A DNA stretch of 35,115 bases from a virus (IMGVR_UViG_3300044667_000048:1-35115); one strand, 5' to 3'; counted from the stretch's first letter, positions 1 through 24,782 are shown. A program made the numbers and translations. Notes: generated by a model not told the origin, from the sequence alone.

Positions 1-620
1 GCCAGACGACAGCGCCGACGCACCCGAATAGGCGTAACCCTGGTCTAGCGGCTGGCTGCCCTCGACCAGCCCGCCAGGCGGCTTCGGCTTGAGCGGCTGG
101 TTTCCCTCCACAAAGCCCGGCTTGGGCTTGGCCTTGCCCTTCGGCTTGGGGCCAGAGCCTGCGATCATTCCCGGCTCGTCAGCCCCCTTCTTGCCAGTCG
201 CGCTCTGTGCCGCCGCTACCGCCTTCGACAGGCCCTGCACGGCCCCCGACAGGCCGTCCACGCTGCCGGCCACGGTCGAGGACATGTCCGCCACGCCTGA
301 GCCGAGCAGGTCCATCGTGTCGCCGATGATCCGCGATCCGGCCAGCCACGACTGGTCGAGCTGGGCCGCGCTCGCCCCGACCTTGCCGATTGACGAGGTG
401 AGACTGCCCGCCTGCCCCATCGTGGACTGCAGAGAGCCCATGACCGCCTGCAGCCCGCCGGCCACCTGCATGCCGGATCCGTCGATCGTGACCGACAGGT
501 CCGACAGGGAGCGGGCGGCCTCGCGGTTGTTGAGTTGGAGGCCGAAGTCGTTCGCCACCCGTGCCAAGAGGTCGATCGCCCTGGACCTGTAGCGCTGCTC
601 GTACGGGATGAACGCCTCGG
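1..620. repeat. Near-identical direct repeat of the TMP 3' region (partner 16912-17498)
   Basis: Position 1 aligns to 16912. One 33-bp insertion at 262-294. Further near-identical blocks at about 2330-2830 vs 18875-19390 and about 3330-3625 vs 19880-20170. Confidence 0.95.
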
Positions 621-3600
621 TCGCTCCGGTGCCGCTGCTGCCCTCGCCATACAGGACGGTGGGCTTGGAGACCATGTGCGGCGGTTGTGGACGAGTCCCG
701 CCCGCCGCCATCCTCGCGATCCCGCCCTGCGCGTACCGCATGATCGCGCCCGTTGCGGCCTTCAGATCGTCCTGCTTGGCGATGTTCCGGCGCCGCTCGA
801 CGATGTCCGCGATGACCGTTGACTTGACGACCTTTCCGTCCAGGGCGGCGAGCTTCCTCTCATACTCCTTGATCAGCGCGAGCGCTTCCTTGCCGCCCGG
901 CGTCTTGACCTCGGAGTTCACGTTCTCGGGGATGAGCCCGAGCGCCGTGGCGAGGTTGTTCGCCTGCTGCTTGGAGAAGCCCATCTTCTCGGCGAGCGTC
1001 ACGAACGATTCCCGTTGTGCGCCGACCTTCCGGGTCACCTCGTCGAGCGGCGTACCCTGCTCAATCAGCGCCTTCTTGTACGCATTCGCGGAGTCGGCGA
1101 GGCGGATCAGCGCCTCTCTGTTCGCGCGGCCCTTCTCCGTGTTGGTGCTGGTCGCCTGCCCGTTTTCCTTGACCGCCTTGCCTGTCTCGTCGACCGCCCT
1201 CTTGTAGGCGATCTCGGCCGACATGGCGTTGGCCGTCAGCCCGGTCAACTGGTCGATCGCACTGCGTAGCGTGGCCACGTTCCCGGCCGCCGTCGACGCC
1301 GCCGACCCCAGGTCGTGGAGCGCGTCACCGGTCGGTTTCGTCGACTGCTGTGCCGCCGACACCGCGCCTGAATAGCCAGGCAGCAGGCCCTTCAGCTTGT
1401 CCACCTGGTCGCCGGACAGCCCAGCCTCGTGGGCGAGCTCGTTGAACAAGCGAGCCGCCTGCTCGCTGTTGCCCGACTGCACCATCTGCGTCAGCGTCTT
1501 GTCGAAGTTCTCCAGCCGCTGCTTGCCCGTGTCGATCGAATAGAACGAAGGGACCATGCCGGAGATGTTCTTGCTGAGCTGCGCGAACGGGTTGTCGGAG
1601 TTGAGCCGGGAAACAGTCGAGCCCAGCGACTCAAACTGGCCGATTGTCGGGGCGAACCATACCGAGCTGCTAGCCATGTCACCGGCCAGCGTGTCGAGGT
1701 TGGAGCCGAACTTGTTGAGCAGCGCCGGTGCTGCGGACCCCTTCTGTGAGAGCTGGACCATCTGCTTGGCGAGTGCGTCAATGTCGGGGTTCAGGCCGGC
1801 GAGCTCGTCGCCGAGACTGTTCGCCGCGACGGCAGCAGCAGCCAAGACCGCGGCCATGCCGCCCGCCTTGAGCGTCCCCGCGAGGCCGGAAAACGTTCCC
1901 TTGGCGCCGTCCGCCGCCTTGCCCGCCTTGTCGAGACTGCCGGACAGGCCCTGCCACCACCCGACCGCGCTCGAAACGGCCTGGTAGCCCTTCACCGCGG
2001 TAACGGTCGCAGCGATGGCGATTGCCAGCGCCTGGATCTGGCCGGGGCTCATCTTTGACAGCACATCTGCCAGCAGGACCAGACCCCCGAGCTGGATGCT
2101 CGTGCCCAACTTTGCAGCAGCAAAGACCAGACCGACGCCCTTGGCGATCGCCTCAATCTGGGCCGCGTCCATCCCCGCCAGCTTGCCCGACAGGGTGACG
2201 AGGAAGTCCAGGACGCCGGGACCTATGTCCCCACCGGCCTGGGCCACCTTGCCGACGAACCTGGCGATGTTGCCCAGGACTTCGGCCACCTTCGGCCCTT
2301 GTTCGGCCGCGTAGGCCAGGAAGTCGTGGAACTCGGGCGAGTTCTTCAGGTCCTGACCCCACTCGGAGAACGCCAGACTGGCCCGCTCGATACCGCCCAC
2401 GATTGTGGGTGTGAACGGCAGGAAAGCGTCGATGACGCCGGCGACCCCGGTTGAGACGTTGATGAACGAGTTGCCCAGGCCGGTCATCGCCCCTGGGATC
2501 TGGGTGTTGATGTTGGTCAGGAACTGCTGCCAGAACGGGCCGGTCAAAGCGGTCTCGGCGTTCTTGCCGAAGGTCAGCAGTCCGGCGCTGGCGCTTTTGG
2601 CGAGGGGGGTGGCCTCCTGTAGGCCCACACGCATCAGCCGAAGGCCCTGGTCGATGACCGGGAACACGTCCGGCTCCAGGGCGCGCTGCCACTTGATGTA
2701 CTCGTCCTTGAAGCTCTTGATGTTCTTGGCGAGCGCGATCTCCTGCTTGTTCAGATCAGCGAAAGCGTCCCTGGCCTTGGCCGCGCCACCGCCGCCGGCC
2801 ATAGCCTGCTGCTGCTGCAGATGGGCGAGCTTGAGCTGCTGCGCGGCCTGCGCGGCAGCGAGTTCGGCCTGCCGAAGCTTGTCCTGGGCCCGTTCGTACT
2901 CCTCGGTGCCCTTGACTCCTTCACGGTTGGCCTCTGCCGTGTCCTTCTTCGCCCGTGCGGTCTTGACCTCCTGCTCGCGTGCCCGCTCGTGCGCCATGTC
3001 GACGTTGAGCATGGCCCGTTCGAGGTCCAGGTCGGAGGCATCACCCTTCGATCGGAGCTCGGCGAGACGAGCCTCAGCCTCGCGCACGGCCAGCTCAGCG
3101 TCCCTCTGGCTCAGAACGCTGCGTTCAAGGCTGAAATTCATGTCCTCCAGCGCGCGACGGCCGGCCTCGACCGCCCGAGTCAGGTCCTCTTGGGCCTGCT
3201 TGCGGTCCTGCTGGGCCTGCTTGAGCCGGTTCTCGGCCTGCTCTAGCTGCATCGCCTGCTGAGCCGCCTGAGCGGCGCTGCGGCCCGCCCCACCTGTAGC
3301 GCCACCAGCCGCGTTGGCAGCAGCCTCCTGAGCCTTGAGCGCCGTGTTGATGCGGCCAAGGGCAGGAATCGCCACCGCGCCGAAAGCCGCAGCTCCAGCC
3401 CCCGCCGCGGCGAACGCTCCGCCGAGCGCGGTCACGCCGACGGCGATCGTCGTCACCGCAGGCAGGGACGCGAGAGCCGCGCCCACGAGGGCGATGCTTC
3501 GCAGCGCGCCGGCTACGTCGGCATTGACGTCGACTCGGGCGTCCTTACCGTTGAGCTTGGACACCTCAGCGTCCACAGCACGCAGTTCAGCGAGAGCGGC

Positions 3601-3972
3601 GCCGATGTCGGCCTTGACGTCAAGGGTTGCGGACTGGCCCTGCAGCTTCTCCAGCTCCCGCTCGATCTCCTGCAACTGCAACTGAGCCGACGCCGCGTCT
3701 ATGTCGATGCCGATCTTCTTGCTCGCCAGCTTCTCCATCTCCGCCCGAAGCTGCGCGAACTTGATCTCGGCAGGGCTCGAATCGGCGTCTATCTGAATCT
3801 TCGGCAACGCCTTAGTGGCAGCTTCCAGCCGCCGGCGGAACTGGTCGGCATAGGCGCCCGTCTGCACCATCTGCCGCGACAGGTCCTCAGTGCTCTGCTT
3901 GGCCTTCCCCATACCCGCGACGAACCCCGAGACGTTCGCCCGCAGATTGATGCTCACACTCCGGTCAGCCAT
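1..3972 (-). CDS. Satellite tape measure protein, 3'-truncated by the window edge (>=1324 aa; about 1396 aa if it ends like the phage copy)
   Basis: Manual translation from ATG 3972 (RBS GGGGAGG) gives MADRSVSINLRANVSGFVAGMGKAK, homologous to 16693..20520. The same frame at position 1 reads PLDQGYAYSGASALSSG, identical to the phage TMP. Absent from the ORF track, consistent with no stop in the window. Confidence 0.93.
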   Translation of the reverse strand, partial: MADRSVSINLRANVSGFVAGMGKAKQSTEDLSRQMVQTGAYADQFRRRLEAATKALPKIQIDADSSPAEIKFAQLRAEMEKLASKKIGIDIDAASAQLQLQEIERELEKLQGQSATLDVKADIGAALAELRAVDAEVSKLNGKDARVDVNADVAGALRSIALVGAALASLPAVTTIAVGVTALGGAFAAAGAGAAAFGAVAIPALGRINTALKAQEAAANAAGGATGGAGRSAAQAAQQAMQLEQAENRLKQAQQDRKQAQEDLTRAVEAGRRALEDMNFSLERSVLSQRDAELAVREAEARLAELRSKGDASDLDLERAMLNVDMAHERAREQEVKTARAKKDTAEANREGVKGTEEYERAQDKLRQAELAAAQAAQQLKLAHLQQQQAMAGGGGAAKARDAFADLNKQEIALAKNIKSFKDEYIKWQRALEPDVFPVIDQGLRLMRVGLQEATPLAKSASAGLLTFGKNAETALTGPFWQQFLTNINTQIPGAMTGLGNSFINVSTGVAGVIDAFLPFTPTIVGGIERASLAFSEWGQDLKNSPEFHDFLAYAAEQGPKVAEVLGNIARFVGKVAQAGGDIGPGVLDFLVTLSGKLAGMDAAQIEAIAKGVGLVFAAAKLGTSIQLGGLVLLADVLSKMSPGQIQALAIAIAATVTAVKGYQAVSSAVGWWQGLSGSLDKAGKAADGAKGTFSGLAGTLKAGGMAAVLAAAAVAANSLGDELAGLNPDIDALAKQMVQLSQKGSAAPALLNKFGSNLDTLAGDMASSSVWFAPTIGQFESLGSTVSRLNSDNPFAQLSKNISGMVPSFYSIDTGKQRLENFDKTLTQMVQSGNSEQAARLFNELAHEAGLSGDQVDKLKGLLPGYSGAVSAAQQSTKPTGDALHDLGSAASTAAGNVATLRSAIDQLTGLTANAMSAEIAYKRAVDETGKAVKENGQATSTNTEKGRANREALIRLADSANAYKKALIEQGTPLDEVTRKVGAQRESFVTLAEKMGFSKQQANNLATALGLIPENVNSEVKTPGGKEALALIKEYERKLAALDGKVVKSTVIADIVERRRNIAKQDDLKAATGAIMRYAQGGIARMAAGGTRPQPPHMVSKPTVLYGEGSSGTGATEAFIPYEQRYRSRAIDLLARVANDFGLQLNNREAARSLSDLSVTIDGSGMQVAGGLQAVMGSLQSTMGQAGSLTSSIGKVGASAAQLDQSWLAGSRIIGDTMDLLGSGVADMSSTVAGSVDGLSGAVQGLSKAVAAAQSATGKKGADEPGMIAGSGPKPKGKAKPKPGFVEGNQPLKPKPPGGLVEGSQPLDQGYAYSGASALSSG

Positions 3973-4228
3973 GGATGCCGCCCTCCCCGAGCTGGGCGGC
4001 CATCTCCGCCTCGACCTCAGCCACGGACACCCCGCACCGTTCAGCCAGCGCCGCCACCGGCAACTCCCTCAGCCGGTCAAGCACATCCACCAGCGCGACC
4101 GCCGAGGCCGGCAGCGACGCCCGCCACTGCTTCAGCATCTCGAACCACACGCCGAGCTCACGATCGCTCAACTCCTCGACCGCCTCCCAAGCGCGCTCCC
4201 GCGCTCGCTCCGCCTGTCCCCTACTCAC
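3965..4228 (-). CDS. Hypothetical helical protein (87 aa) overlapping the TMP start
   Basis: ORF track; overlaps both neighbours by 8 nt, which suggests translational coupling. Confidence 0.65.
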   Translation of the reverse strand: MSRGQAERARERAWEAVEELSDRELGVWFEMLKQWRASLPASAVALVDVLDRLRELPVAALAERCGVSVAEVEAEMAAQLGEGGIHG

Positions 4229-4529
4229 AAGATCCCCTCCCGAATGCGCCCCTCAGGGCCTCCCACAGCGCCTCACGCGCCGCCGCCGCGTCCCCGGCCT
4301 CCAGCGAGGCCACACCGGGCCCCAAACCGTCCACCAGAGCCGCCAGACGCTCGAAATCAGCCGCCGAACCAACCCCGGCAGCCACCGCGCGAGCCCCGAG
4401 CGCGCGAAGCTGATCCGCCTCATGCACCAGCCGACACCTGAGCACCAGTCCGTCCACCTTCCGGCCCGCTTCCAGGTCCTCAAGCGCACGCGCGAACACC
4501 ACAACCGGGCCGCCGTCAGTCGAAAACAT
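4221..4529 (-). CDS. Hypothetical protein (102 aa)
   Basis: ORF track; GAGGA RBS; overlaps the end of terS. Confidence 0.6.
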   Translation of the reverse strand: MFSTDGGPVVVFARALEDLEAGRKVDGLVLRCRLVHEADQLRALGARAVAAGVGSAADFERLAALVDGLGPGVASLEAGDAAAAREALWEALRGAFGRGSCE

Positions 4530-4995
4530 CGCCGTCCTCGTCCTCCACAGGAGCCACCAGCCGCGACGCGGACGCCGGCGACAGCCCCAGCTCGCCCATC
4601 AACGACCGCCAATGCGCCCGGTACTGGTTGAGCAGCGTCGAATGCGGGTTCTTCACCCACCCGCGCTCCGTCTGCACCACGAGCCCGTCACGCGAAATCG
4701 CCCGCTCGCACTGCCGAATACGTGCCGTCGTCACGCAGAAGTCCGCGAGGCAGTCCTGCTGCGCGACCGTCAGCCCGGCGCACCGCACCAGCACGTCAGC
4801 CGTACGCGCCCACACCTCCGCGCAGTCCTGGCGAACCCGCTCCTCGTCCACGGCCGCGCCCGGTAGCCGATCCGACCAGTCCGGGGCGACCAGCGTGGAC
4901 GGTGGCAGCACCAGGCCGGGAGACAGCGCCTTGTGACCCGGGTTCCCCTCCCGCACCGCGGCAAGGTACGGCTTCGGCTTCGGACCCGGCTTCAA
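4516..4995 (-). CDS. terS: Satellite terminase small subunit, P27 family (159 aa, TTG start)
   Basis: KPGPKPKP..EGNPGHK N-terminus and KNPH..LxxELGLSPASASRL C-terminal motif. GGAG RBS lies before TTG at 4995. Confidence 0.88.
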   Translation of the reverse strand: MKPGPKPKPYLAAVREGNPGHKALSPGLVLPPSTLVAPDWSDRLPGAAVDEERVRQDCAEVWARTADVLVRCAGLTVAQQDCLADFCVTTARIRQCERAISRDGLVVQTERGWVKNPHSTLLNQYRAHWRSLMGELGLSPASASRLVAPVEDEDGDVFD

Positions 4996-5036
4996 GATCG
5001 CTCCACAAGAATCGCCGAACCCCCGCCACCGCCCGA

Positions 5037-5053
5037 CGATCTCCCCCGCGGTC
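5037..5053. other. Second cos-like core (17-bp repeat of 5152-5168)
   Basis: CGATCTCCCCCGCGGTC occurs at 5037 and 5152, immediately upstream of the satellite terS. Confidence 0.6.
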
Positions 5054-5122
5054 TCCACTTGGCCTCTGAGGGGGTCCCGCCCCGGGTGGGGGGTGGGCTG
5101 AGATGTCCTCGCGCGCGTGCGT

Positions 5123-5169
5123 GGGAAGGTCTCAGGTCCTTGGACTGCGAGCGATCTCCCCCGCGGTCC
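5123..5169. other. Putative packaging (cos) site shared with the helper phage
   Basis: Ungapped 40/47 match to 31169-31215, which lies between the phage HNH and terS. Confidence 0.75.
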
Positions 5170-5519
5170 CGGTTGGGGTCTGGGCTTGGGGCCCTACCCA
5201 CCCTGGGGGTGGCATCAGGGCGCGACGCTATGCCAACGGCCATGCCACCATGCCCTTCCCAACGTCGACTTGAAGGGGGGACGGGCTGTGAAGACCATGG
5301 CCTCGACCACGTTGGATGGCATCTGGTGCTGCTCGACCGGGTTCCACCTTGGCTACCTGGAGTACCTGGGTTCGGACCTGGACTCTCTGTTGCCGGCGCA
5401 TGTGTACCGCTGCTTGTTGCATGACGAGCTGGTGGAGTTCGCAGCTCGGTAGGTGGTGCGCAGGCCGGGGCAGTGCAGGAGGTAGAGCCTGCCCCGGCCT
5501 GGATCTTGGTGGCCATGGG

Positions 5520-6308
5520 CTAGAACCCCACGGCCTTGTAGTGGCCTGGCCCGTTGGCGATGGCTTCGGCTACTGCTCTGGCCTGCTCGTCGGGTGTCGG
5601 CATCCACGGTTGGGCGCCTCGCTCGGCCCACATGATGAGCGTCTGTCTGGTGGTGAGTCCGTGCCAGGGGACGCGCGCCATGGCCATGCGACTGGGGGCG
5701 AGTTCGTCGCGGTTGCGGAGTGTGGCGTATCGGTCGCCTGGGTCTTCGGGGCAGCGGATGCCGATGGCCCACAACGCTTGCCGGCCTGCCCGGATGGTGC
5801 CGTAGGTCTCGGCGAGCTGGTCGAGGTCGTCCGATGCCTTGCGCACCTTGGCGGGGGCGGACAGGAGGCGGCGGGGTTCGTTGTCGCCGTGCTTGGCCAG
5901 GGTGGCGCACGCGTCCTGTATGGCCTGCCACGTCTTGTCGAGGGCGGGCGCGAGGTGGCCGGTGATGATGTCGAGGGCGCGTTCGCGGATGCAGCCTTGT
6001 ACGCGACGGGCGGCGATCTCCTGGGCGAGCGCGAGGAGTTCGATGGTGTCTTCGCGGATGCGTTCCTGAGCGCGGGCCTGCTCGATCTGGGCGGGGTCGG
6101 GGAGTGGCTGGCCGGCGTAGAGGGCGTCTACGGTGGCGGTGGCTAGTTCTCCGGTGATCTGCCAGGAGGAGCGGGGCGGGACGGGCCATGGTTCGGCGAG
6201 GAGTTCGGCGTGTACGTCGCGGAGCTTCAGGAGCTCGTCGGGCAGCGTGTAGGCGCCTTGGGCCTGGCCGTGGAACAGGTCGGGGCAGGGGAGGCTGGTC
6301 TCAGGCAT
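5520..6308 (-). CDS. Hypothetical protein (262 aa)
   Basis: ORF track; GAGGAG RBS; protein-like composition; no family recognised. Confidence 0.85.
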   Translation of the reverse strand: MPETSLPCPDLFHGQAQGAYTLPDELLKLRDVHAELLAEPWPVPPRSSWQITGELATATVDALYAGQPLPDPAQIEQARAQERIREDTIELLALAQEIAARRVQGCIRERALDIITGHLAPALDKTWQAIQDACATLAKHGDNEPRRLLSAPAKVRKASDDLDQLAETYGTIRAGRQALWAIGIRCPEDPGDRYATLRNRDELAPSRMAMARVPWHGLTTRQTLIMWAERGAQPWMPTPDEQARAVAEAIANGPGHYKAVGF

Positions 6309-6444
6309 CGGGGGTCTCCTCGCCGGCCTCGACGTCGGTGGCGGCCTCGGATGTGCGGGCCTGCCGGTACAGCTCTGCTCGTATGGCGGTGCGCTGCTGG
6401 GGCGCTTGTTCGGCCATGTCGCGGATGAGCTGGTTCATGTCCAC
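6301..6444 (-). CDS. Small hypothetical protein (47 aa, MDMNQLIRDMAEQ...)
   Basis: Manual translation; AGGAG RBS before GTG; fills the gap and overlaps the next start. Confidence 0.6.
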   Translation of the reverse strand: MDMNQLIRDMAEQAPQQRTAIRAELYRQARTSEAATDVEAGEETPDA

Positions 6445-6453
6445 GCGCGTCTC

Positions 6454-6867
6454 CTACGCTGCTCGGCTGGCCCGGAAGTGCTCCAGGTCCTCTCTGGTGA
6501 TCTGCCATCGGCCGTTGATCTGCTCGGCAGGGAGGCGCCCCTCTGCGATTGCTTTGACTACGCCTCGGGGCGTCATGTCGAGCAGGTCAGCGGCGTCCCT
6601 GGTGGTCACCTGAGGAGAGGATGGGGCTAGTTCCGGTTGGTTCCGGCTATCGGTTCCGGTCGCGGAACTTCGCCATGCGGCGGCGGCGAGCCTGAGCGCG
6701 GTGAGGACGGCGTCGACTTCGGGGTCTTGGCCGCGGCGTTCGATGCGGAGGCGGGTGAGGTCTGCGTGTCGTTCGAGCCAGGCGGCGACCCGGCCGGGCA
6801 CGACGACGGCGGGCGCTCCGATGCCGTGGACGTAGTGCTCGGCGGGTCGCGGCGGCTGATGCTTCAT
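6454..6867 (-). CDS. Excisionase-like HTH (HTH_17) domain protein (137 aa)
   Basis: C-terminal VTTRDAADLLDMTPRGVVKAIAEGRLPAEQINGRWQITREDL. Confidence 0.85.
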   Translation of the reverse strand: MKHQPPRPAEHYVHGIGAPAVVVPGRVAAWLERHADLTRLRIERRGQDPEVDAVLTALRLAAAAWRSSATGTDSRNQPELAPSSPQVTTRDAADLLDMTPRGVVKAIAEGRLPAEQINGRWQITREDLEHFRASRAA

Positions 6868-7040
6868 GGCCTGGCGCTCACAGGGGGGCCGTCCATGGCC
6901 TGTCGTGACCAGACCGGAATCAGGCGACTGTCATGACCTACTCGCGGGCGCACCTTCATGGGTCCGCCGGCGTAGGGCGCCTTGATGGGTCCATGAGGGT
7001 GCGCCGACGTACCGGGGGCCCATGAGGTTCCTCTGGTCAT
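6864..7040 (-). CDS. Small hypothetical protein (58 aa)
   Basis: ATGA overlaps at both ends, with 7037 and 6867. Confidence 0.5.
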   Translation of the reverse strand: MTRGTSWAPGTSAHPHGPIKAPYAGGPMKVRPRVGHDSRLIPVWSRQAMDGPPVSARP

Positions 7041-7480
7041 AGCGTTCCCCTGGGGGGAACCGTGGGCGTGGTGCCCACGGTTGAGATGTCGTGGTTGATC
7101 AGGACGCCGATGTACTGGCCTTCCTCGTCGAGGTAGCCCTGTTGGACCTCGACGCCCACTCGCACCTTGACCTTGTCCGTCATGACGTCGTCCACGAGCT
7201 TGGCCATCTGCCGTATCGCCCAGGTGATGGCGTGGGCGTCGGCGGAGGTGATCGGGCGGGTGAAGACGTCGAGTAGAAGCGCCTGGTGGACGAGGTCGAG
7301 GCCCTTGATGATCTGCCCGTAGCCGCGGGCGAGCCGGTCGGCACAGTCGGGGCACGTCCATTGGTCGCCATCGGTGAACGCGGCCACTGCATGGATCTCG
7401 TACGTCTCGTGGCAGCGCCAGCATTCGCCGTCTGCCGGCCCGGAGAACAGGGTCAGCTCAACCCGGACGGGTACGGTCAT
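7037..7480 (-). CDS. Zn-ribbon hypothetical protein (147 aa)
   Basis: AGGAGG RBS before ATG 7480; CWRC...CPDC motifs. Confidence 0.8.
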   Translation of the reverse strand: MTVPVRVELTLFSGPADGECWRCHETYEIHAVAAFTDGDQWTCPDCADRLARGYGQIIKGLDLVHQALLLDVFTRPITSADAHAITWAIRQMAKLVDDVMTDKVKVRVGVEVQQGYLDEEGQYIGVLINHDISTVGTTPTVPPRGTL

Positions 7481-7494
7481 CGTTCCTCCTTTGG

Positions 7495-7670
7495 AGGGGG
7501 TAGCGTCCGAAAGCGTCCAAGTGTCCGCAGATCGCTTTGACCTGCAGAAACGAGGGGACGGCTCTATTTCGCTGGACGGTTCAAAGCGTCCGGACGTTTT
7601 GATCTGTCCGGCCGTTTTCACTGGTCAGACCCCTTGTCGGACTCTTGGACGGTTCCGGACGCTAGGTACC
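7495..7670. repeat. Putative satellite replication origin (GTCC/GGAC iterons)
   Basis: AAAGCGTCC at 7510 and 7583, TGGACGGTTC at 7573 and 7646, and the inverted pair TAGCGTCCG 7501 / CGGACGCTA 7656, all at the 3' end of the replication gene. Confidence 0.65.
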
Positions 7671-8724
7671 TGGCGAACGCGTCTTGGAAGTGGATGAGCT
7701 GGTATCCGCGAGCGGTCTTGGCCTGGTTGTGTCCGGGCTTCACCCCGTACGGCCGGAGCTTGTCCGACAGGCCGCGAGGGGTCAGCTCAAAGTCCTTCCA
7801 TGGCGACTCCTCGATCTTGTGGAGGCGGGCGAGGAGTTCTTGAGAGGTGAGGAAGGACACCCCGGACAGGTCGGCGAAGATGTCCCGGATGTCGCCTAGG
7901 AGCTTCATTCCGAGAGACGCCTCCGCGTCTGCTTCGCTCTCCGCCGTGACGAGCTTCAGGGCGGCCAGGCGAGCGCGCCGTGGCCACTCGCCGCCTGCCA
8001 GGTCGGCAATGGCGATGAGCGGTTCCCATGTGTCCGCTGCCCGGTCCTCCACGGGCATGTCCGGCTCGGCCTTGGTGAGCCGGTCGAGGTAGCCAGCGGC
8101 CCACTGTCCGAGTCGGGCGCGCAGTTCGCCCAGCGGTACACCGTCCCGGCGGCGCCGGTACGGCTTCACCGTCTCGCCAGGGCCCCGGCGGCGCATCCGG
8201 ACCACCACGGAGCGGTCCATGATGGTGTCCGGCATGTCTCCGATGCCGGCCAGCGCCGCCATGGAGAACGTCGGGCACTCCTCAGCCATCCGCGCTGTGG
8301 CATCCCACCGGATGTACGGCCGGTTGCGCTGGTGGCCAGCGTTGATGATGCCCCGCAGGTCCTCGTTCTGGTCGGCGGCCTTCTTTCCGAAGATCGTGTC
8401 CGCCTCGTCCACAAGCAGCGTGGGAGGCTTGGCACCGATCGACCGGACCAAGGCGGCCGCCGAGATGTTCACCGTAATGAGCGGCTTGTGACACGTCGCC
8501 TCGATCACGTCGAGCAGACGACTCTTGCCGCACCGCTTCTCCGGTGCCGTGATGACCAGCCGCGTGGCGTGCTCCCACGCATCTTGCGCGTGGGTGGCAG
8601 CAGTCCACAGCGTCACCGCGTCCGCCGCGTAGGCGTTCGGCATGATGACGTACTTCAGGAGGACAGCGTGGAGTTCGTCGAGCAGGACTGCCCCGGACTC
8701 GTCACTGACCAGACGCAAGCTCAC
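7618..8724 (-). CDS. DUF3631-type P-loop replication protein (putative helicase)
   Basis: APEKRCGKS Walker A, LLVDEAD Walker B, DRAADTWEPLIAIAD motif; follows prim-pol. Confidence 0.88.
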   Translation of the reverse strand: MSLRLVSDESGAVLLDELHAVLLKYVIMPNAYAADAVTLWTAATHAQDAWEHATRLVITAPEKRCGKSRLLDVIEATCHKPLITVNISAAALVRSIGAKPPTLLVDEADTIFGKKAADQNEDLRGIINAGHQRNRPYIRWDATARMAEECPTFSMAALAGIGDMPDTIMDRSVVVRMRRRGPGETVKPYRRRRDGVPLGELRARLGQWAAGYLDRLTKAEPDMPVEDRAADTWEPLIAIADLAGGEWPRRARLAALKLVTAESEADAEASLGMKLLGDIRDIFADLSGVSFLTSQELLARLHKIEESPWKDFELTPRGLSDKLRPYGVKPGHNQAKTARGYQLIHFQDAFARYLASGTVQESDKGSDQ

Positions 8725-9500
8725 GCGCTTCTCCTGATGGTCCTGAGCGCGGAGCGCACGGTACGAAGGGCCTCGCGCTCGTCGAGGCCGATGGACTTGG
8801 CGACGGTCACCAGCTCGTCGAGGTCGTGTTCACTCGCGCCGTTCTCCAGCGCTCGGCAGCACGCCCAGTAGAGCGAGGCGTTCCTGTTGCCCTCGCCCTG
8901 TCGGGACAGCCACGCGGCCAGGCCAGGGACGCCCGTTCCAATAGCTTCCCGGCGCCGGGAAGCTATGTCCGCGGCAGGCTTAGGCGGGTCGAGTAGCTGC
9001 TTGACCGCACCCCAATTGAGCATGGCCGTACCGGTGCCCTTGTGGACGAGCGTGTACGGTCTGCCGTTGACCTCGGAGCCGGGGGCGAGCACGTACCCGC
9101 CTCGGGCCTTCCAATCGATGTGGTGCGCCTTGAGCTTCCCGCACGGCTGGGAGCTGCCGGCGACGTACACGTGCATGCCGCCGCGCGGGGTGGTGACGAC
9201 CGCGAGCGGTTCGGGGACGAGCCCGGCCCGCTTCAACCTGTTGAACGCCGGGTAGCCGGAACCCTTCTGCGTCACGTCGACGTCGAGCACGTCGAACGTG
9301 GCGGCCCCGGTAGGGATCGCAACGTTCGCGTTCGGGTGCCACGTCCACCAGCGGCGGGCGTGCTCAACATCGAGGGTCGCGTCGAGGAAGCCGCGGGGAA
9401 CGAGGCGGCCAAGCGGCGCCTTGCCTCCGGGCTCGCACGGGAACACCGGCCAGCCCCGTTCGATGTAGGCCAGGGCGGCGGCCATTCTGGTGCGGGTCAT
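8721..9500 (-). CDS. Bifunctional DNA primase/polymerase (prim-pol with PriCT-like C-terminus)
   Basis: GWPVFPC..GKAP, DVLDVD, TPRGGMHVY, GGYVLAPGS, EGNRNASLY. Confidence 0.93.
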   Translation of the reverse strand: MTRTRMAAALAYIERGWPVFPCEPGGKAPLGRLVPRGFLDATLDVEHARRWWTWHPNANVAIPTGAATFDVLDVDVTQKGSGYPAFNRLKRAGLVPEPLAVVTTPRGGMHVYVAGSSQPCGKLKAHHIDWKARGGYVLAPGSEVNGRPYTLVHKGTGTAMLNWGAVKQLLDPPKPAADIASRRREAIGTGVPGLAAWLSRQGEGNRNASLYWACCRALENGASEHDLDELVTVAKSIGLDEREALRTVRSALRTIRRSA

Positions 9501-9850
9501 CAGGCGGCCCGCTTTCCGCGCCTGGTCGCGCGGGGCGCGTGTAACGCCAACTCGTATTTAGCGCCGCATCGGGCGGTGCGCCAGACGAGCGCGGGGGCGT
9601 TGCCGCGAAGCCTGTGGTTGTGCCAGTCGCCGCATTCGCATGGCTGGTCGAGGACCACGAGCGTGGTCACGGTGCCCCAGGCCGGCGGGTAAGCGGTGGC
9701 GCTCCGAACGATGGGCAGCTGCCCGACGAACTTCCGCTTGTCGGACGTACGCGCTATGGTCGAGGTGTCTTCGGCGGCCTTGTGGTCGTTTCTGGCCCTG
9801 GCGGGAGCTGCAACTCCCCCGGGGCCGTTTTGCGTCTTCGGCTTGTTCAT
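9500..9850 (-). CDS. Hypothetical Cys/His protein (116 aa, MNKPKTQ...)
   Basis: TAATG overlap with the upstream gene; CECGDWHNH...C motif; contains a TTA codon at 9542-9544. Confidence 0.7.
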   Translation of the reverse strand: MNKPKTQNGPGGVAAPARARNDHKAAEDTSTIARTSDKRKFVGQLPIVRSATAYPPAWGTVTTLVVLDQPCECGDWHNHRLRGNAPALVWRTARCGAKYELALHAPRATRRGKRAA

Positions 9851-10056
9851 TACGCAGCACCGCCGACGTACCGAGAGTTCTCCCAGTCGATGACATCGGA
9901 CAGCTTGTAGCTGCAGACTCGGCCGATCTTCATGTACTTCGGGCCAGTGCGGGAGCTGTTCCACCGGTAGACGGTCCACACGGTGACGTTGTGGCGCTCG
10001 GCCAGTTCCTCGATGCTCAGGTGCTTCTCCAGCGGAGGCATGGAGATACGTGCCAT
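9850..10056 (-). CDS. AlpA/excisionase-like HTH protein (68 aa)
   Basis: LSIEELAER..VTVWTVYRW...GPKYMKIGR..Y..SDV..W; divergent from the repressor. Confidence 0.88.
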   Translation of the reverse strand: MARISMPPLEKHLSIEELAERHNVTVWTVYRWNSSRTGPKYMKIGRVCSYKLSDVIDWENSRYVGGAA

Positions 10057-10176
10057 GACTGAACTCCTTTAGTTCAAGTCGCACATATAACAGTGACAGC
10101 AGGAGACTAGCGCTCACTGGCGAAGTTTGGCAATATTGGACGCGACTTGAACTGAATTAGTGACATGGAGAACTAA
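10057..10176. promoter_or_regulatory. Divergent switch region with operator-like inverted repeat
   Basis: AT-rich; perfect 12-bp inverted repeat AGTTCAAGTCGC (10071-10082) / GCGACTTGAACT (10142-10153); AGTGACA at 10093 and 10159. Confidence 0.65.
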
Positions 10177-10839
10177 GTGGGCAACGCCGAGCGGCCTAGC
10201 GATGTGCTGGCGCGACAGGTGAAGTACTGGCGTACGCGGCGGAAGCTCTCAGCTCAGGCGCTTGCGGATCGCATCGCCGAGGATCAGGGCACTCTCGACC
10301 GGCCGGCTATCTTCAAGATCGAGAACGGCAAGCGCGGCGTAAGCGTCGAGGAGTGGCTACAACTCGCCTACGCCTTGGCGGTCCCGCCCGCCTTGCTGTT
10401 CCTCGACCTGGCGCGCGGCGACCAAGTTGCGGTCGTGCCCGGCGCCGAGATTCACCCGTGGCTCGCCTGGCAGTGGGTGGCCGGCGAGAGTGAGCCCATC
10501 ACCACAAACCGCCGCGGGAAGCGCACGTCCGAATGGCTGGAAGCACGGCGCTACGTCCGCACGTACGAGCGCGAGGTCGAGGCGTCTGCAGCCGTCCATA
10601 AGGCCTACAGCCGACTGGCTGATGCCGAGTTCACGGGCAAGCCCGAGGAGATCCAGGACGCCCGGGGAAAGCAGGTGGAAGCCCTACGCAACCTCGCGGC
10701 CATCTTCGACGAGATGGTCGAGCTGGAGATGAGCCCTCCCGGAAAGCCGCGTGACTGGGTCGAGATCATGCGGAGCCTGAACATGCTCAAGTACCCCGAC
10801 GCGGTCGAGATCTTCGAGCCAGACGACGACGAGGAGTGA
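10177..10839 (+). CDS. XRE-family HTH repressor (220 aa)
   Basis: RTRRKLSAQALADRI...IFKIENGKRGVSVEEWLQLAYALAV; upstream of the integrase. Confidence 0.9.
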   Translation: MGNAERPSDVLARQVKYWRTRRKLSAQALADRIAEDQGTLDRPAIFKIENGKRGVSVEEWLQLAYALAVPPALLFLDLARGDQVAVVPGAEIHPWLAWQWVAGESEPITTNRRGKRTSEWLEARRYVRTYEREVEASAAVHKAYSRLADAEFTGKPEEIQDARGKQVEALRNLAAIFDEMVELEMSPPGKPRDWVEIMRSLNMLKYPDAVEIFEPDDDEE

Positions 10840-10842
10840 GCC

Positions 10843-12018
10843 ATGGCCCGGGTGAGGGATCTTTGGTACACGAATGGCAAGGACGCTGACGGGAATCTGA
10901 TCAAGGTCCCCACCAAGCGGCATCCCGACCATGGGGGCAGCAAGACCGCTAAGCGGTGGCTCGCATGCTGGTTCGGTCCTACCGGGAAGGAGGAGACCAA
11001 GGCGTTCGCGGTCAAGACGCAGGCCGCCAACCACGCCACCACGATGGAGGCCGATCGACTCCGCGGTGTGTACGTCGATCCGAAGCAGGGCCAACAGAAG
11101 CTGCAGGAGTACGGCGAGGCTCGATGGCTGCCCGCGCAGCTTCACCTCCGGCCGAACTCGGTTGAGCTGTACGGCCAGCACTTACGCAAGCACATCTATC
11201 CCCGGCTCGGAGGCCGGCGCATCGCCACCTTGACGCGGGCCGACATGAAGGCGTTCGTTACAGCCATCTCTTCCGTGCTAGCGCCGACCACCGTGAGTAC
11301 GGTGTTCTCGGTCCTGCGCGCCTTGATGAACTCGGCGGTCGACGATGGGGTGATACCTGCCAACCCGTGTACCCGCGTCCCGCTCCCCCGCACCGAAGCG
11401 CGCGTCGTTGAACCCCTTCCAGGGCAGGCGATCCTCGACCTCGTCGAGGCCATCACCCCTCGATACAGGCTCGCGGTGTGGCTGGGTGCCGGCCTTGGGC
11501 TGCGTGAAGGTGAAGCACTCGGATTGACGCTCGCACGCGTCGACTTCCTGCGCCGCAAGGTTGAGGTGCGCTACCAGCTCCAGCGCGGCAAGCTGGTCGA
11601 GCTCAAGACGCGAGCGTCCAAGCGCACCCTGCCAGCAGACGACCTGGTGTTGACACAGATCTCCGCGCACATGCAGCAGTGGAAGCCGGGCCCTAGTGAT
11701 CTCCTGATCACGAATCGGTCCAACAAGCCGGTCGGACGGTCGGCGTTCTGGGAGTGCTGGCGGAAGGCCGTCGAGGCGGCCGGCCTGCCCAAGGGGACGC
11801 GCTTCCATGACCTTCGGCACTGCTACGCATCCACGTTGATCGCGGCCAACATCGGGCCGAAGGTGATCCAAAGTCGGCTAGGCCACGCCAAGATCGCCGA
11901 GACGTTCGACACGTACGGACACCTGTTCCCGGACGATGAGGACCTTGGTCGCGGAGCCATCGAAACCATGATCGGTAAGGCTATGGCGGAACAGGAACGG
12001 AACAGAGCGGCTGAGTGA
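10843..12018 (+). CDS. int: Tyrosine integrase (391 aa)
   Basis: Catalytic motifs GLREGE, HDLRH and LGH...TFDTYGHL. Confidence 0.97.
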   Translation: MARVRDLWYTNGKDADGNLIKVPTKRHPDHGGSKTAKRWLACWFGPTGKEETKAFAVKTQAANHATTMEADRLRGVYVDPKQGQQKLQEYGEARWLPAQLHLRPNSVELYGQHLRKHIYPRLGGRRIATLTRADMKAFVTAISSVLAPTTVSTVFSVLRALMNSAVDDGVIPANPCTRVPLPRTEARVVEPLPGQAILDLVEAITPRYRLAVWLGAGLGLREGEALGLTLARVDFLRRKVEVRYQLQRGKLVELKTRASKRTLPADDLVLTQISAHMQQWKPGPSDLLITNRSNKPVGRSAFWECWRKAVEAAGLPKGTRFHDLRHCYASTLIAANIGPKVIQSRLGHAKIAETFDTYGHLFPDDEDLGRGAIETMIGKAMAEQERNRAAE

Positions 12019-12203
12019 CCGCGTTTGCCCTGGTCGCGAGGATGAGTGTAGACGAGTCGGCCTGTAGGCCGGGTTCTGCTCACCCCGGCCTTCTGACCTG
12101 CCGATAGACCATCGGCAGGTCCTCTGACCTGCATAAACGTTTGCCGTCGTTTAGCTGTGACTAGCTGGTTCTGGAACCCTGGCACGGAACAGAGACGGAA
12201 CAG
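11987..12203. other. attP-like site: core flanked by paired arm-type repeats
   Basis: CGGAACAG at 11987 and 11998 and at 12185 and 12196 (11-bp period on both sides); 11-bp inverted repeat at 12095-12121. Confidence 0.75.
12050..12078 (-). ncRNA. rnpB: 3'-terminal fragment of RNase P RNA used as att core (not an intact gene)
   Basis: Minus strand reads CAGAACCCGGCCTACAGGCCGACTCGTCT, matching the conserved CAGAACCCGGCnUA of CR-V/P4 plus the 3' strand of P1. The upstream sequence is not rnpB-like. Confidence 0.75.
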
Positions 12204-12901: not shown

Positions 12902-13474
12902 GTGAGCAATCACATCACGCCCGCCCCCACCCCGACCACCAAACTCCCCGAGTCCTGGGAGAAGGCCGCGCAGATCGCCGCCCAGCGCGCCGACATGAAG
13001 GTGCGTGCCGAGTACGAGGCCACCGCGCAGGCATACGACAAGCAGCGCGCCAGCGACGAGCCCGCCTACTGGCTCGCCGGCGACCCCTGCCCGGCCTGGT
13101 GCACGAACGGGCCGCTTCACAAGAGCAGCGACGGCCCTGCCGACCGCGAGCACGACAGCGACATCATGCGGCAGAGCCTCAACAGCATGCCGCCCATCAC
13201 GGCGTTCGCGGACTTCCGCGCCCCCGAGGTCACGCTGACGCTCACGAAGAAGTACCGCGAGGTCGAGGCCCGCGTCGAGATCAGCACCAGCGACCAGGAC
13301 GCCTACTTCGCGACCCTCGACGAGGCGGAGGGCTTGGCGTTCGCGCTGCTCGACCTCGTCCGGCAGGGACGCGGGCAGGAGCCGCCCAAGCTGCAGCTCT
13401 TCGACTCCACGGGCCGGTGCGTCACCCGCGAGTGCGTGACCTGCCACGCCGAAGCCGAAGGCGCGAGCGCATGA
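12902..13474 (+). CDS. DUF6907-like protein (CPxWC..H motif), 190 aa
   Basis: CPAWCT..H..DREH and TLDEAEGLAFALL. Confidence 0.8.
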   Translation: MSNHITPAPTPTTKLPESWEKAAQIAAQRADMKVRAEYEATAQAYDKQRASDEPAYWLAGDPCPAWCTNGPLHKSSDGPADREHDSDIMRQSLNSMPPITAFADFRAPEVTLTLTKKYREVEARVEISTSDQDAYFATLDEAEGLAFALLDLVRQGRGQEPPKLQLFDSTGRCVTRECVTCHAEAEGASA

Positions 13475-13818
13475 GCGCGGCCCCCAGACCGGCCGCCTGC
13501 CCGCCGTGGTGCTCGGTGAAGCACCTTGACGCGGACCAGCGCACGGCTCACTTCAGCGCCTTCGTCCGCGTGGGTGACGGAGTCCTCAACCTCCTGCGCG
13601 TCGAGGGCAACCCCGACAAGGACACCCGCTACGGCGTGGTGCGTCTCTCGATCATCGGTGGCCTGGTGTACGAGATGACGGAGGGAGTGGCGGCGGACAC
13701 CGCCCAGCTCATGGCGCACGTCGCCGAGGCCGGCATGGACCACCCGCTGATCAAGGCGCTATGGGAGCACGCCGAACTGCTCCGCGTCGACCGCGAGGGC
13801 TCGGAGGGGAAGCAATGA
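13471..13818 (+). CDS. DUF6907-like paralog (115 aa)
   Basis: ATGA overlap; CPPWCSVKH...H. Confidence 0.75.
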   Translation: MSAAPRPAACPPWCSVKHLDADQRTAHFSAFVRVGDGVLNLLRVEGNPDKDTRYGVVRLSIIGGLVYEMTEGVAADTAQLMAHVAEAGMDHPLIKALWEHAELLRVDREGSEGKQ

Positions 13819-14206: not shown

Positions 14207-14244
14207 GGTTCCCTTGCCGTTCCCCGGACGGTTCTCGGCGGCGT

Positions 14245-15140
14245 CATGGACGCGACCAACTCGGCGACCGGTCACGGTCGGATTCGTGGTCACGGACGAG
14301 GTCACATACCTGGTCGCGTAGTTTCCGCGTCCACGCAGGTCAAGCAGCATATTTCGGTTTCATTCCGGGTTTCGATTTGGACGCGACCGGCGACCGTGGA
14401 CGCGACCGGTTCGTGACCCTCAGCGTGTCCCTGTTCGTGACACATCACCGGCGCCGGCGCTGACACTTTGTGGTCGCGGGTTGGACGCGACCAACAGTAG
14501 GAACCGCCGGCAGCATCCGCGCGAGGTCTGACACTTCACCGCGTGATCGCGCCCCGACCGGTACACCCCGGTACGACCGCAGTCGAGTCGTCGGCATAGC
14601 GATCCGAGAGTGTCATGCTGACACTCTCCAGCCCTTGGGAGCGAGTTAGATGCGGGGTTACGTCGGCGATCCGGGGTTACTTTCGTAACCAGGCCCGTGC
14701 GCCCACCTAACTCCGCCTCTGGCCTGCGACGAGTTAGCCGAGTTAGGTCCCAGCGCCGAGTTAGGGAGGGAGGCTCGAACGCCCTCCAGAGCGTGTTTTC
14801 GAGGGGGCCGCGCCACCTAACTAACTCTCGCTCCCCCGCCTCCCTGCAGGGAGGTTTGCAGGTCATCATGAGGGAGGCGGCCAGGGAGGCGCGGAGGGAG
14901 TTCTCCCTGACTCTCTGACCGCCTCCCTGCCCTCCGAGGGCCGCTAGGGAGCCGCTAGACCTAGCACTGGAGCCGCGTGGCCTAGCGGCCCTGCAAGGGC
15001 CGTCCGCTTGGCCCCTAGCGGCCTAGCGGGAGGCGTCTAGGGAAGGGTCTAGCCCTAGACGGGAAGGGTCTAGGAGCTAGACGCGAGGTCTAGGAAACTA
15101 GGGCCCTCGGAAGTGGAAGAACGTGGCCCTAGACGGCCTA
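14245..15140. repeat. Non-coding array of consecutive, different short-repeat modules
   Basis: TGGACGCGACC x4; CTGACACT x3; CGGGGTTAC x2; CGAGTTAG x4 plus inverse copies; AGGGAGG/CCTCCCT cluster; CCGCTAG/CTAGCGG; GTCTAG/CTAGAC (14 CTAG in about 190 bp). Confidence 0.9.
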
Positions 15141-15647: not shown

Positions 15648-15932
15648 CTAGTCCTCTGACGGCCATTCCTCTACAGGCCGTACGAAAGTCCCCTTCGCGG
15701 GCAGCGTGATCAACCAACCGCGCTCGACCAGTTCCCGAATCGCTCGCCGCACCGTGCCCAAGGCGACGCCGTAGTCACCGCTCATCTGACGTTCGCCTTC
15801 CAGCCGCGCACCGGGCGGGAGTTCGCCGGCCTTGATGCGGGCGACGACGTGGTCAGCCATGCGGACGTACACGTACTCGGCGGCGACCAGGTCAGGGTCG
15901 AACGGCTCGATCGCGGGCTTCTCGTCAGGCAC
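15648..15932 (-). CDS. GntR-family winged-HTH regulator (94 aa)
   Basis: Y.RMADHV..RIKAGELPPGARL..ER.M...YGVALGTVRRAI.EL...G......KGTFV. Confidence 0.9.
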   Translation of the reverse strand: MPDEKPAIEPFDPDLVAAEYVYVRMADHVVARIKAGELPPGARLEGERQMSGDYGVALGTVRRAIRELVERGWLITLPAKGTFVRPVEEWPSED

Positions 15933-20629: not shown

Positions 20630-20746
20630 ATGAACCTGCAAGGCCCCGAACTGCTGATGATCCTGGTTGTGCTCCTGCTGCTGGGAGCGATCATCTTTGG
20701 CGTTGTCTTCGCTGCCGTGCGGATGGCAAACCGCAAGCGGTCTTAG
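20630..20746 (+). CDS. Antisense-oriented small membrane protein (38 aa), moron-like
   Basis: GAGGAG RBS; MNLQGPELLMILVVLLLLGAIIFGVVFAAVRMANRKRS, a single TM helix with a basic tail. Confidence 0.75.
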   Translation: MNLQGPELLMILVVLLLLGAIIFGVVFAAVRMANRKRS

Positions 20747-21165
20747 CTGACCTGCTCCACAAACCGAATCAGCGCATCTGAGCGGACCGTTGGCATCTTG
20801 GAGCGCTGCTCGTCATCCTTGAGAAGGGCGTCACAGCCGTAGCAGCGGGCCGGTTCTGGCACGCGGTAGCTGTGGACAGGCTCCCCGTTCGCCATCGCCG
20901 TTGTGTCGGCAAGCTGCAGTCGACATGTGGGGCATCGCCCGTTGAGCCACCGCCGCCACGCCTGCGCCCACGACACGTCCTCGGGCAGCCAGCGCGGCTC
21001 CCAAGTCGTGACCGTCCGTACGAGGCGGTCCCCCTCGTACACAAACTCCGTCGTAGCCTGTGATTGGCGTCCCAGCAGTTCACTACGCGGGACGCCAAAC
21101 ATGGCGGCTACTTCGAGTTCTTCCTGGAGCTCTGGAGAATCGCGGAGGCGGCGAACGAGAAAGGG
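20743..21165 (-). CDS. Tail assembly chaperone GT extension (-1 frameshift product)
   Basis: Open -1 frame entered at the slippery heptamer C CCT TTC (21159-21165); CPTC...CYGC. Confidence 0.8.
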   Translation of the reverse strand, partial: PFLVRRLRDSPELQEELEVAAMFGVPRSELLGRQSQATTEFVYEGDRLVRTVTTWEPRWLPEDVSWAQAWRRWLNGRCPTCRLQLADTTAMANGEPVHSYRVPEPARCYGCDALLKDDEQRSKMPTVRSDALIRFVEQVS

Positions 21166-21662
21166 ACGTCCACATCCCTCTTGTTCACGGAGAACGCGGC
21201 GCTGACGAGGCTGTCCCACTGCGCCTGCGTGAGCACGTCCGCAAGCTGCTCGGCCTCCACGACGCTCATCTTGGGCTCGACCGCGCAGGCAGACACGAGC
21301 GCGACCGAGAACGTCTCCCAGTCGACCTCCGCGCCATTCTCCCTGTCCTCGTCGCTCGGAGGGCAGGAGGCGACGATGTCGGAATACTCCTTGCGCGGCC
21401 TGCCCTGGAACCGGAAGACGCGCGTGTGCTCACGCATCCGCTCACGCAGTTCCATGATCTGCTGCGCGATCTGGGTAGCCATCGGGTTGGCTCCGCCCGC
21501 GAGCGTGCCGTCCGCCGGCTGGTCGCGAGCGATCGCGAGATCACGCTCCAGGTCCTCGAACTCCGCCTGCAGATCACCAGCCAGGCAGATCGGAACCGTC
21601 TTCTCCGGGCGCTTGACCCGGCCGATGATGTCCGCGATGGCCTCGGACTTGGTCGAGGTCAC
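21108..21662 (-). CDS. Tail assembly chaperone G (184 aa)
   Basis: Lies between tail tube and TMP; DVPF slippery site near the C-terminus. Confidence 0.88.
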   Translation of the reverse strand: MTSTKSEAIADIIGRVKRPEKTVPICLAGDLQAEFEDLERDLAIARDQPADGTLAGGANPMATQIAQQIMELRERMREHTRVFRFQGRPRKEYSDIVASCPPSDEDRENGAEVDWETFSVALVSACAVEPKMSVVEAEQLADVLTQAQWDSLVSAAFSVNKRDVDVPFSFAASAILQSSRKNSK

Positions 21663-22150: not shown

Positions 22151-22153
22151 GGC

Positions 22154-22369
22154 CTACTCCTTGTCTTCCGAGGCAGGCCGAGATGCCGCCTTCTTGGGCT
22201 TGGGGGAACTGGTCTCTTGCGAGGAGTCGCCGGCGGGCGTGTCGGGCTCATCGCCAGTCTCGGATGGGTCCTCGATGGTGTAGCCCTCACGGCCCTGCCA
22301 GTAGGGCAGGGCGAAGGCGTCGACCTCGAAGGTGTTGCCGTACGGGTCGCGGATGGTCAGCGAGCTCAT
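22154..22369 (-). CDS. Small hypothetical protein (71 aa)
   Basis: ATGA overlap; low-complexity charged tail. Confidence 0.65.
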   Translation of the reverse strand: MSSLTIRDPYGNTFEVDAFALPYWQGREGYTIEDPSETGDEPDTPAGDSSQETSSPKPKKAASRPASEDKE

Positions 22370-24780: not shown

Positions 24781-24782
24781 TG

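Follow-up and report, generated by a model that had tools for sequence, protein, structure and literature searches.

Viral record IMGVR_UViG_3300044667_000048:1-35115, one stretch of 35,115 nt with a GC content of 62-71% (the whole of it is called the window below), holds a capsid-less phage satellite with its own tape measure protein (TMP) beside the genes of a siphophage. Open reading frames (ORFs) were annotated by Pfam, PHROG and NCBIfam profile scans. Leftwards from position 12018, the element reads integrase, XRE repressor, small helix-turn-helix (HTH) protein, 116-aa ORF, Prim-Pol, DUF3631 protein, HTH_17 protein, 262-aa gene, P27-family small terminase (TerS), two small ORFs and TMP (Table 1), and no capsid, portal, large terminase (TerL) or tail-tube family matched any of the ORFs scanned in 1-16690. 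An earlier note on this DNA had described an element with an integrase, a repressor, an AlpA gene and a prim-pol gene but devoid of capsid, portal, TerL and tube, and the profile scans of that interval bear it out. Its late operon, given there as terS, two small ORFs and a TMP of at least 1324 aa homologous to the neighbouring TMP, is likewise recovered by ORF calling and alignment, and the in-frame stops in 1-3972 that the note had named as grounds for rejection are absent.

Table 1. Features of the window, with positions counted from its first nucleotide.
Feature	Position	Strand	Remarks
Satellite TMP	1..3972	-	1324 codons stop-free, open at contig end; phrog_4197, E 2e-46
Perfect 108-nt repeat of 16912-17019	1..108		Contig begins inside repeat
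orfB, 87 aa	3965..4228	-	Overlaps TMP start; helical model, pLDDT 87
orfA, 102 aa	4221..4529	-	Without family match
Terminase small subunit, P27 family	4516..5058	-	Likely start 4995; TIGR01558, 52.2 bits, cut-off 45.6
63-bp non-coding site	5107..5169		Likely packaging (cos-region) signal; core again near 5036-5052
262-aa helical protein	5520..6308	-	Kept in actinobacterial islands with and without TMP
HTH_17/excisionase-like DNA-binding protein	6454..6867	-	
DUF3631, RepAM-type replication initiator of AICEs (integrative and conjugative elements of actinomycetes)	7618..8724	-	PF12307, E 2e-59
Prim-Pol primase/polymerase	8721..9500	-	PF09250, E 1e-36
Small HTH protein, AlpA position	9850..10056	-	HTH model E 3e-5, below cut-off; AlpA label by position
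XRE-type repressor	10177..10839	+	Divergent from main operon
Tyrosine integrase	10843..12018	+	87% identity to L078, 72% to L047 (both rnpB-integrated relatives)
Attachment (att) core	12051..12079		3' end of RNase P RNA gene in L047, L078; attP configuration
19-nt arm-type repeat	12185..12203		Identical, at same +134 offset, inside far end of G013 element
Two DUF6907 genes	12902..13818	+	Family marks far arm in 7/10 full relatives
Non-coding cassette, four repeat blocks	14240..15140		Blocks C and D likely mimic clt (the locus that acts in cis in transfer)
GntR regulator	15648..15932	-	KorSA/TraR-like position; follows TMP in 9/10 full relatives
Neighbouring phage TMP as assembled, 1275 aa	16693..20520	-	Last 72 codons (16693-16911) may be satellite's
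Phage head, connector and tail-tube module	20743..31806	-	HNH, terS, terL, portal, capsid, tube and chaperone candidates; likely helper

The satellite TMP and the neighbouring TMP are 58% identical over the whole alignment, with identity running block by block through 69, 95, 73, 95, 29, 65, 94 and 97%. Specifically, four blocks (residues 116-210, 396-550, 1131-1220 and 1232-1324) are 94-97% identical, with a proportion of synonymous differences (pS) of 0.11-0.29 versus 0.47-0.52 in the flanks, and within them the non-synonymous proportion (pN) lies well below pS. For these four blocks the neighbour is the best match of 166 TMPs compared, whereas the swapped central segment is closest to other phages (69-83%, versus 16-27% for the neighbour). 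This pattern reflects recent recombination with the neighbouring phage on a mosaic TMP gene, which makes the neighbour the likely helper. Among cultured phages no close TMP was found (best 38% over 30% of the query).

The 121-aa excess that the earlier note had derived for the satellite TMP from alignment offsets of 16911 and 16548 stands after recomputation, and 107 of these residues sit in the swapped central segment. A TMP sets tail length at about 0.15 nm per residue. In PLE11, one of the PLEs (elements that resemble phage-inducible chromosomal islands) of Vibrio cholerae, 10 nm of tail correspond to 95 aa (PMC12987554, partial text), and the satellite TMP would give a tail some 13-18 nm longer. 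That a longer tail is itself the adaptive point is nevertheless very unlikely. From the start codon to the shared repeat the satellite TMP does have this net surplus, and tails made with the satellite EPIP exceed those of its helper (PMC12822802), but the complete TMPs of related satellites are not longer than those of phages (955-1490 aa, median 1241.5, n=10, versus 948-1769 aa, median 1322, n=32; p 0.089), which leaves extra length unsupported as a family trait or purpose; with PLE11, tails fall short of the helper's by 10 nm (PMC12987554, partial text), and the true C-terminus of the helper TMP may lie outside the window. It is also improbable, if somewhat less so, that the satellite TMP acts mainly as a defence, poisoning helper tail assembly through mixed oligomers, and not as a structural part. 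The near-identical blocks would permit co-assembly with the helper TMP, and tail assembly is a known defence target (PMC12987554, partial text; PMC11364771, search record); against this, full length, both ends and a hydrophobic segment at 159-205 are retained with pN far below pS, a poison has no need of a 1400-aa gene, and the TMP is structural in PLE.

TMP homologs were collected from 5/5 genome hits and one viral locus, 24/401 family genomes and 23/110 genus genomes, and at each locus genes were predicted by a simple caller and grouped into clusters that Pfam and PHROG scans served to label; L007, a near copy of L006, and the short, weak L008-L010 were excluded from the counts. The resulting 50 loci comprise 37 phages, 12 capsid-less elements and one unassigned locus. 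All 12 satellites are integrase-regulator-primase-TMP elements without head genes, and together with the anatomy of the element and the precedent of PLE (PMC12987554, partial text) they support the earlier note's central claim of a helper-dependent satellite with its own TMP. The relatives belong to the Streptosporangiaceae; because the nearest TMP relatives come from Nonomuraea and Streptosporangium, the host likely falls into that group and is probably a Nonomuraea-like soil actinomycete.

In the TMP tree (43 of 48 rows, the other five, four of them satellites, being too short; quick trees, the careful tree being unfinished), starred branches force at least six label changes, and the satellite TMPs as one lineage were rejected (single clade, p-AU 3e-65). 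By these trees, satellites have captured TMP repeatedly. Late modules also differ among the relatives, with HNH genes, neck genes and two TerS families; HNH genes occur in L071 and L073, and captured neck or head-tail connector genes (phrog_5, DUF6093) precede the TMP in L056 (9238-11173) and L078 (1808-2437), resembling the adaptor and stopper genes of EPIP. Most phage loci (for example L001, 13782-15781) carry three or four genes of about 83, 155, 165 and 230 aa, mostly without a named family, between TMP and Dit. The proposition that the TMP defines the backbone was rejected, as L102, L105, L107 and L137 have backbone genes without TMP.

The right boundary of the satellite, placed at 12203 in the earlier note, is not confirmed: element DNA lies to the left and to the right of the att core at 12051-12079, and the interval 12080-16690 corresponds to the far arm seen in relatives. 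The 28-29 nt of this core are the 3' end of rnpB in L047 (16748-16775) and L078 (9218-9245), which is thus where this integrase family inserts; a description of rnpB as an att site was not found in a literature search that included the partial text of PMC12540744. What follows the neighbouring TMP is not a set of tail-tip or lysis genes but one gene for GntR, two for DUF6907 proteins and one for an HTH protein, and no terminator-like site was found after it. With five genes for tail tip and lysis taken from phage locus L001, tblastn returned zero matches at E 0.01 against the whole window, and the neighbour, taken by the earlier note for an intact helper, has no Dit, Tal-like or endolysin homolog after its TMP by this search. 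Dit/Tal-like genes adjoin the TMP in 27 of the 32 phage loci with downstream DNA and the GntR/DUF6907 arm in none, while downstream of the TMP in ten satellite loci GntR is found in nine and DUF6907 in seven. Since this gene order is seen in satellite loci and in none of those phage loci, we assign 12080-16690 to the satellite.

In genome G013, which carries an rnpB element, the core recurs 17,034 bp away and an identical 19-nt arm repeat follows 134 bp on, as in the window; att pairs lie 17.0-21.9 kb apart in six family elements. Because the core is flanked by element DNA on both sides, both element ends are joined in the window, the state of an excised circle or of elements in tandem. Closing the circle at the 108-nt repeat gives 16,911 bp (versus 17,034 bp for the G013 element) and a TMP of 1396 aa. 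Among the Logan contigs, X1 and X2 look like one data set, and X3 and X4 are without the stretch. A 9045-nt piece of run X1 spans the att junction, and four satellite and far-arm pieces of this run have depths of 20.3, 19.4, 17.6 and 16.4 versus 22.7-33.9 for ten phage pieces, a step that is a hint, contig depth not being copy number, about 70% of X1 having been read and X1 probably being the window's own source, all of which tempers the case made here. The Logan pieces listed cover neither 364-3347 nor 16610-17470, that is, neither TMP joint. In the far arm, minor variant contigs at 13513-13569 and 16611-16623 (depth 8.9 and 6.8) indicate a second related element or allele in run X1. Exact searches with the shared repeat in metagenome contigs for sequence left of position 1, and with the att core in viral contigs, returned nothing.

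Most likely, assembly fused a 16.9-kb satellite circle with the phage at the TMP repeat to give the window. As a less likely, minority alternative, the window would exist as a single molecule: either a cointegrate formed when the circle recombined with the phage through the homologous TMP genes, in which case the tail-tip genes of the phage would be found left of position 1, or a phage/satellite hybrid in tandem with a satellite at rnpB. The contig was assembled in that form, perfect repeats of 89-143 nt are recombination substrates, tandem arrays do exist, as extra att cores past attR in G374 and G437 demonstrate, and a mixture of free phage and cointegrate would yield the same depth step. 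Conversely, the contig start falls exactly inside the repeat, a TMP joined to the satellite arm occurs in 0/32 phage loci, host DNA is absent from the window and the far arm has a satellite-like depth. Tandem island arrays at tRNA-Pro have extra att cores beyond attR in L082 (1389 and 12407) and L083 (2884 and 12401), and L082 holds another FtsK-like gene.

The 63-bp site, upstream of the satellite terS, shares 79% identity with 31153-31215, the DNA immediately before the phage terS, and is likely a packaging signal (cos); its position between HNH and terS is a usual one for cohesive ends. It is kept in L003, L046 and L073, of which two have no terS in view, and is partly present before terS in two of nine phage stretches fetched; the satellite and neighbour TerS proteins gave no blastp match to each other. 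The orfB family was found in 5/401 and 4/110 genomes (eight distinct), always abutting a satellite TMP directly upstream; its profile, built from seven genomes with G329 as the single independent match, also recovers 24 unnamed proteins without context. The orfB protein may be a chaperone or an inhibitor of the helper TMP. The 262-aa helical protein, whose gene was not found in cultured phages, is a candidate for remodelling the helper head to a 17-kb genome, conceivably as a scaffold of the Sid or TcaP kind. Its homologs P0132-P0134, P0137 and P0141 come from contigs 15.9-16.9 kb long, further ones occur in Streptomyces, and the backbone family is likely wider than the loci collected. ESM Atlas searches returned unnamed clusters or nothing. 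PADLOC gave zero matches among 12 accessory proteins. The gene at 15212-15616 encodes a 134-aa proline-rich membrane protein, possibly an exclusion protein acquired from phages, since homologs adjoin TMP on its upstream side in phage loci L051, L060 and L069.

Could the element instead be a decaying AICE/prophage mosaic with a passively acquired TMP? Late modules vary among relatives, and in L071 the TMP is broken into separate frames of 444 and 832 aa (around 7786-9120), which also weighs on the functional reading developed below. We nevertheless give decay very little credence, in view of a TMP position and a link to orfB that stay the same although captures are independent and att sites and genera differ, intact frames with a GC content at third codon positions of 0.8-0.9, and the excised attP form spanned by the 9045-nt piece.

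The replication genes point to a further relationship. DUF3631 corresponds to RepAM, and Prim-Pol beside RepAM constitutes an AICE replication module (PMC3218068, partial text). A far-arm pump is present in eight of ten full relatives, six of them TraB-like and accompanied by TraA and two with PF01580; TraB matched NF041214 at E 4e-118 and 2e-112 in the two scanned and TraA its profile at E 5e-11, seven of the eight pumps contain a Walker A pattern, and TraB found no match among PDB sequences at E 0.1. Just 3' of each pump lies a repeat cluster whose sequence goes by pump type (GTGGCACC in 6/6, GGTCTACC in 2/2), and a GTGGCACC cluster occurs in L071 as well. In Streptomyces conjugation, clt is described as direct repeats of 8 bp that the matching TraB recognises (PMC4447253, partial text). 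Prim-Pol plus DUF3631 as an AICE module, TraB in relatives and the repeat cassette at 14240-15140 were absent from the earlier note.

Neither a pump gene nor a pump coding remnant was found in the window or near its cassette. The cassette consists of block A (GGACGCGAC, four copies), B (GAGTTAG, six copies), C (AGGGAGGC, five copies) and D (CTAGAC, eight copies); for B, C and D, these copies within 0.9 kb compare with 0, 1 and 4 in the remaining 34 kb. Cassette matches occur in 11/110 genomes, including the pump-less satellites L056 and L071, and in four of seven further stretches no more than about 30 nt separate block C or D from the 3' end of a PF01580 gene. As the window supplied motifs C and D, these are bound to be present in the matches, whereas their position at pump ends does not follow from that choice. 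Block C also matches non-coding DNA of the Streptomyces plasmid CP109096.1, which encodes FtsK/SpoIIIE and SpdB, and L137 (G413:C8, 9245-10390), a pump-less, TMP-less PICI-like island (PICI, phage-inducible chromosomal island) with HNH and terS, carries blocks A, C and D in the window's order. Across the 173 sequences scanned, clusters of at least three copies per 300 bp were found only beside pumps, on CP109096.1, or in the pump-less window, L056, L071 and L137. Plasmid CP109096.1 (L136; 16,404 bp) seems to be a dimer of an 8.2-kb plasmid, its gene set being present twice.

Blocks C and D of the window are, from their homology and position, likely clt mimics. The cassette could instead consist of replication elements (single-strand origins) or leftovers of a decayed AICE, the element moving by phage only, which we hold to be rather unlikely. 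RepAM elements are tied to rolling-circle replication (PMC3218068, partial text), the match on CP109096.1 lies downstream of rep and not beside the pump gene, and blocks A and B are without a pump partner; but in four groups of pumps the type of pump goes with the identity of the repeat, the unrelated G413 element, also pump-less, has three of the blocks in the window's order, and no coding remnant of a pump was found near the cassette.

Read directly from the DNA are the gene content, the rnpB attP core, the shared 63-bp site, the mosaic TMP, the relatives' TraB/FtsK genes with repeat clusters, and the homology of blocks C and D to pump 3' ends. On this basis we propose the following course of events. 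Helper induction would lift the XRE repressor, and the element would excise from rnpB and replicate by Prim-Pol/RepAM. Helper TerL, with helper or satellite TerS, would package it from the shared 63-bp site, and the satellite TMP, perhaps aided by orfB, would replace the helper TMP in tails. Through the four 94-97% blocks the satellite TMP would still fit the chaperones and the tail tip of the helper, and its swapped middle would evade factors aimed at the helper TMP, any gain in tail length being a by-product. The element would have lost traAB and would offer several clt-like arrays to pumps in trans. It is therefore, on balance and with some reserve, probably a capsid-less AICE-derived element of about 16.9 kb that parasitizes a temperate siphophage through a copied packaging site and its own TMP and rides TraB pumps through copied repeats. 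More tentatively, and with somewhat less than even expectation, it may belong to a family intermediate between AICEs and phage satellites, in which an AICE chassis bears a phage-hijack module (packaging site, TerS, orfB and recaptured TMP), most members keep TraB and could spread either in phage particles or through conjugation between hyphae, and pump-less ones gather foreign clt repeats and exploit both machines.

Several observations pull the other way. Prim-Pol occurs in 2/12 relatives, the others having Toprim, AAA_25, D5 or DUF3987, typical of PICI-like elements. The TraB proteins labelled c30 score 396 and 377 bits where NCBIfam sets its cut-off at 800, and they also fail that of PF01580. 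The cassette repeats run in both orientations, clt being described as direct (PMC4447253, partial text); shuffle support is modest for some clusters (2, 10, 0, 0, 3 and 20 of 200, and 2 of 200 for the window); blocks A and B have no pump-adjacent homolog, their search in the family being at chance level apart from G329 and that in plasmids yielding nothing useful; and among the seven further stretches L142 and L143 have no pump at the match, weak matches in G416 and G439 falling outside this set. In G228 and G488, where satellite and prophage TMP are both in the tree, the two are not close kin. Family and fold matches assign neither a capsid-remodelling nor a chaperone role: orfB, although in a tac-like position, does not align with the neighbour's chaperone candidate and found generic helical matches, none specific (best Z 7.9), and the 262-aa protein (pLDDT 90.6) found generic coiled coils (best Z 7.1) and no viral match below E 0.7.

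TMP-carrying satellites are already known (PLE, EPIP and some cf-PICIs, that is, capsid-forming PICIs); new here are the AICE-like backbone and origin, the recombining TMP and the cassette with several clt-like repeats. If true, the proposal joins two classes of mobile elements studied apart and provides the first case of clt mimicry, a TraB counterpart of multi-oriT hitchhiking; neither an AICE/satellite double route nor clt mimicry was found in the open-licence literature. With the near-identical, recombining TMP pair it becomes testable which segments make a TMP fit a given tail and how having a TMP benefits a satellite, and complete members are carried by named, culturable strains (L003 and L005). 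Satellite finders will miss or mis-call the family because their models forbid tail genes, and a TMP shared by satellite and helper can cause the two to be fused in virus catalogues.

Among known systems, the closest in function is the V. cholerae PLE, whose TMP enters virions and whose TMP deletion cuts transduction by 96-99.9% (PMC12987554, partial text, as for all PLE statements here). That work already establishes the mechanism by transmission electron microscopy, mass spectrometry and deletion, so the earlier note's view of a barely known strategy understates what is established, and the legend of its Extended Data Fig. 10 lists tmp genes in other satellites, including cf-PICIs. Like the present element, PLE has no capsid genes but encodes a TMP, whose length is unlike the helper's and whose gene has a small one next to it. 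By contrast, the PLE TMP is 20% identical to that of a myovirus helper, versus 58% with four blocks at 94-97% and a siphophage helper here; no TAC or BhuB homolog was recognised in our element, and no conjugation module is reported for PLEs in that partial text. EPIP of Mycolicibacterium aichiense is also an actinobacterial satellite with TerS and TMP and with tails longer than its helper's, but it measures 11 kb and has a serine integrase, adaptor, stopper and capsid-like genes, unlike the tyrosine integrase here (PMC12822802), and shows little DNA homology to its helper according to the main text of that report. The TMP of Alyssa1 (651 aa) had no blastp match at E 0.01 among all proteins of the collected loci, 13 Alyssa1 proteins compared with the window gave the terminase, in the phage part, as sole match, and serine recombinases in L045 and L070 are 27% like that of Alyssa1.

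With PICIs the element shares an integrase at a chromosomal att site, facing XRE and small HTH regulators, a primase-replicase, TerS, size and a likely helper packaging site; unlike them, it carries a full-length TMP, tail genes being 'forbidden' in the SatelliteFinder model (PMC10085698, partial text), has AICE-type replication and a transfer arm, and has no recognised capsid-morphogenesis gene. The capsid, portal and TerL of its own that would make it a cf-PICI were not found in 1-16690. Mycobacterial PICIs (PMC10654092) and the Streptomyces satellite Ando (PMC13587820) have capsids, and the word 'tape' is absent from the partial texts of both. As in AICEs, an integrase is combined with both RepAM and Prim-Pol, but the FtsK/SpoIIIE Tra protein is absent from the window, and, unlike in the pMEA300/SLP1 type, a phage late module (packaging site, TerS, orfB and TMP) lies between rep and tra, with several repeat types instead of one (PMC3218068 and PMC4447253, partial texts). 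Mobilisable elements of the oriT-only kind with several oriTs also ride the transfer machines of others through copied DNA signals (PMC11389934, partial text); here, though, a phage satellite carries the signals, which would serve double-strand pumps of the TraB type instead of relaxases. The element appears to work like a PLE for tails and to be built like a PICI on an AICE chassis, but departs from each of these families in one defining feature.

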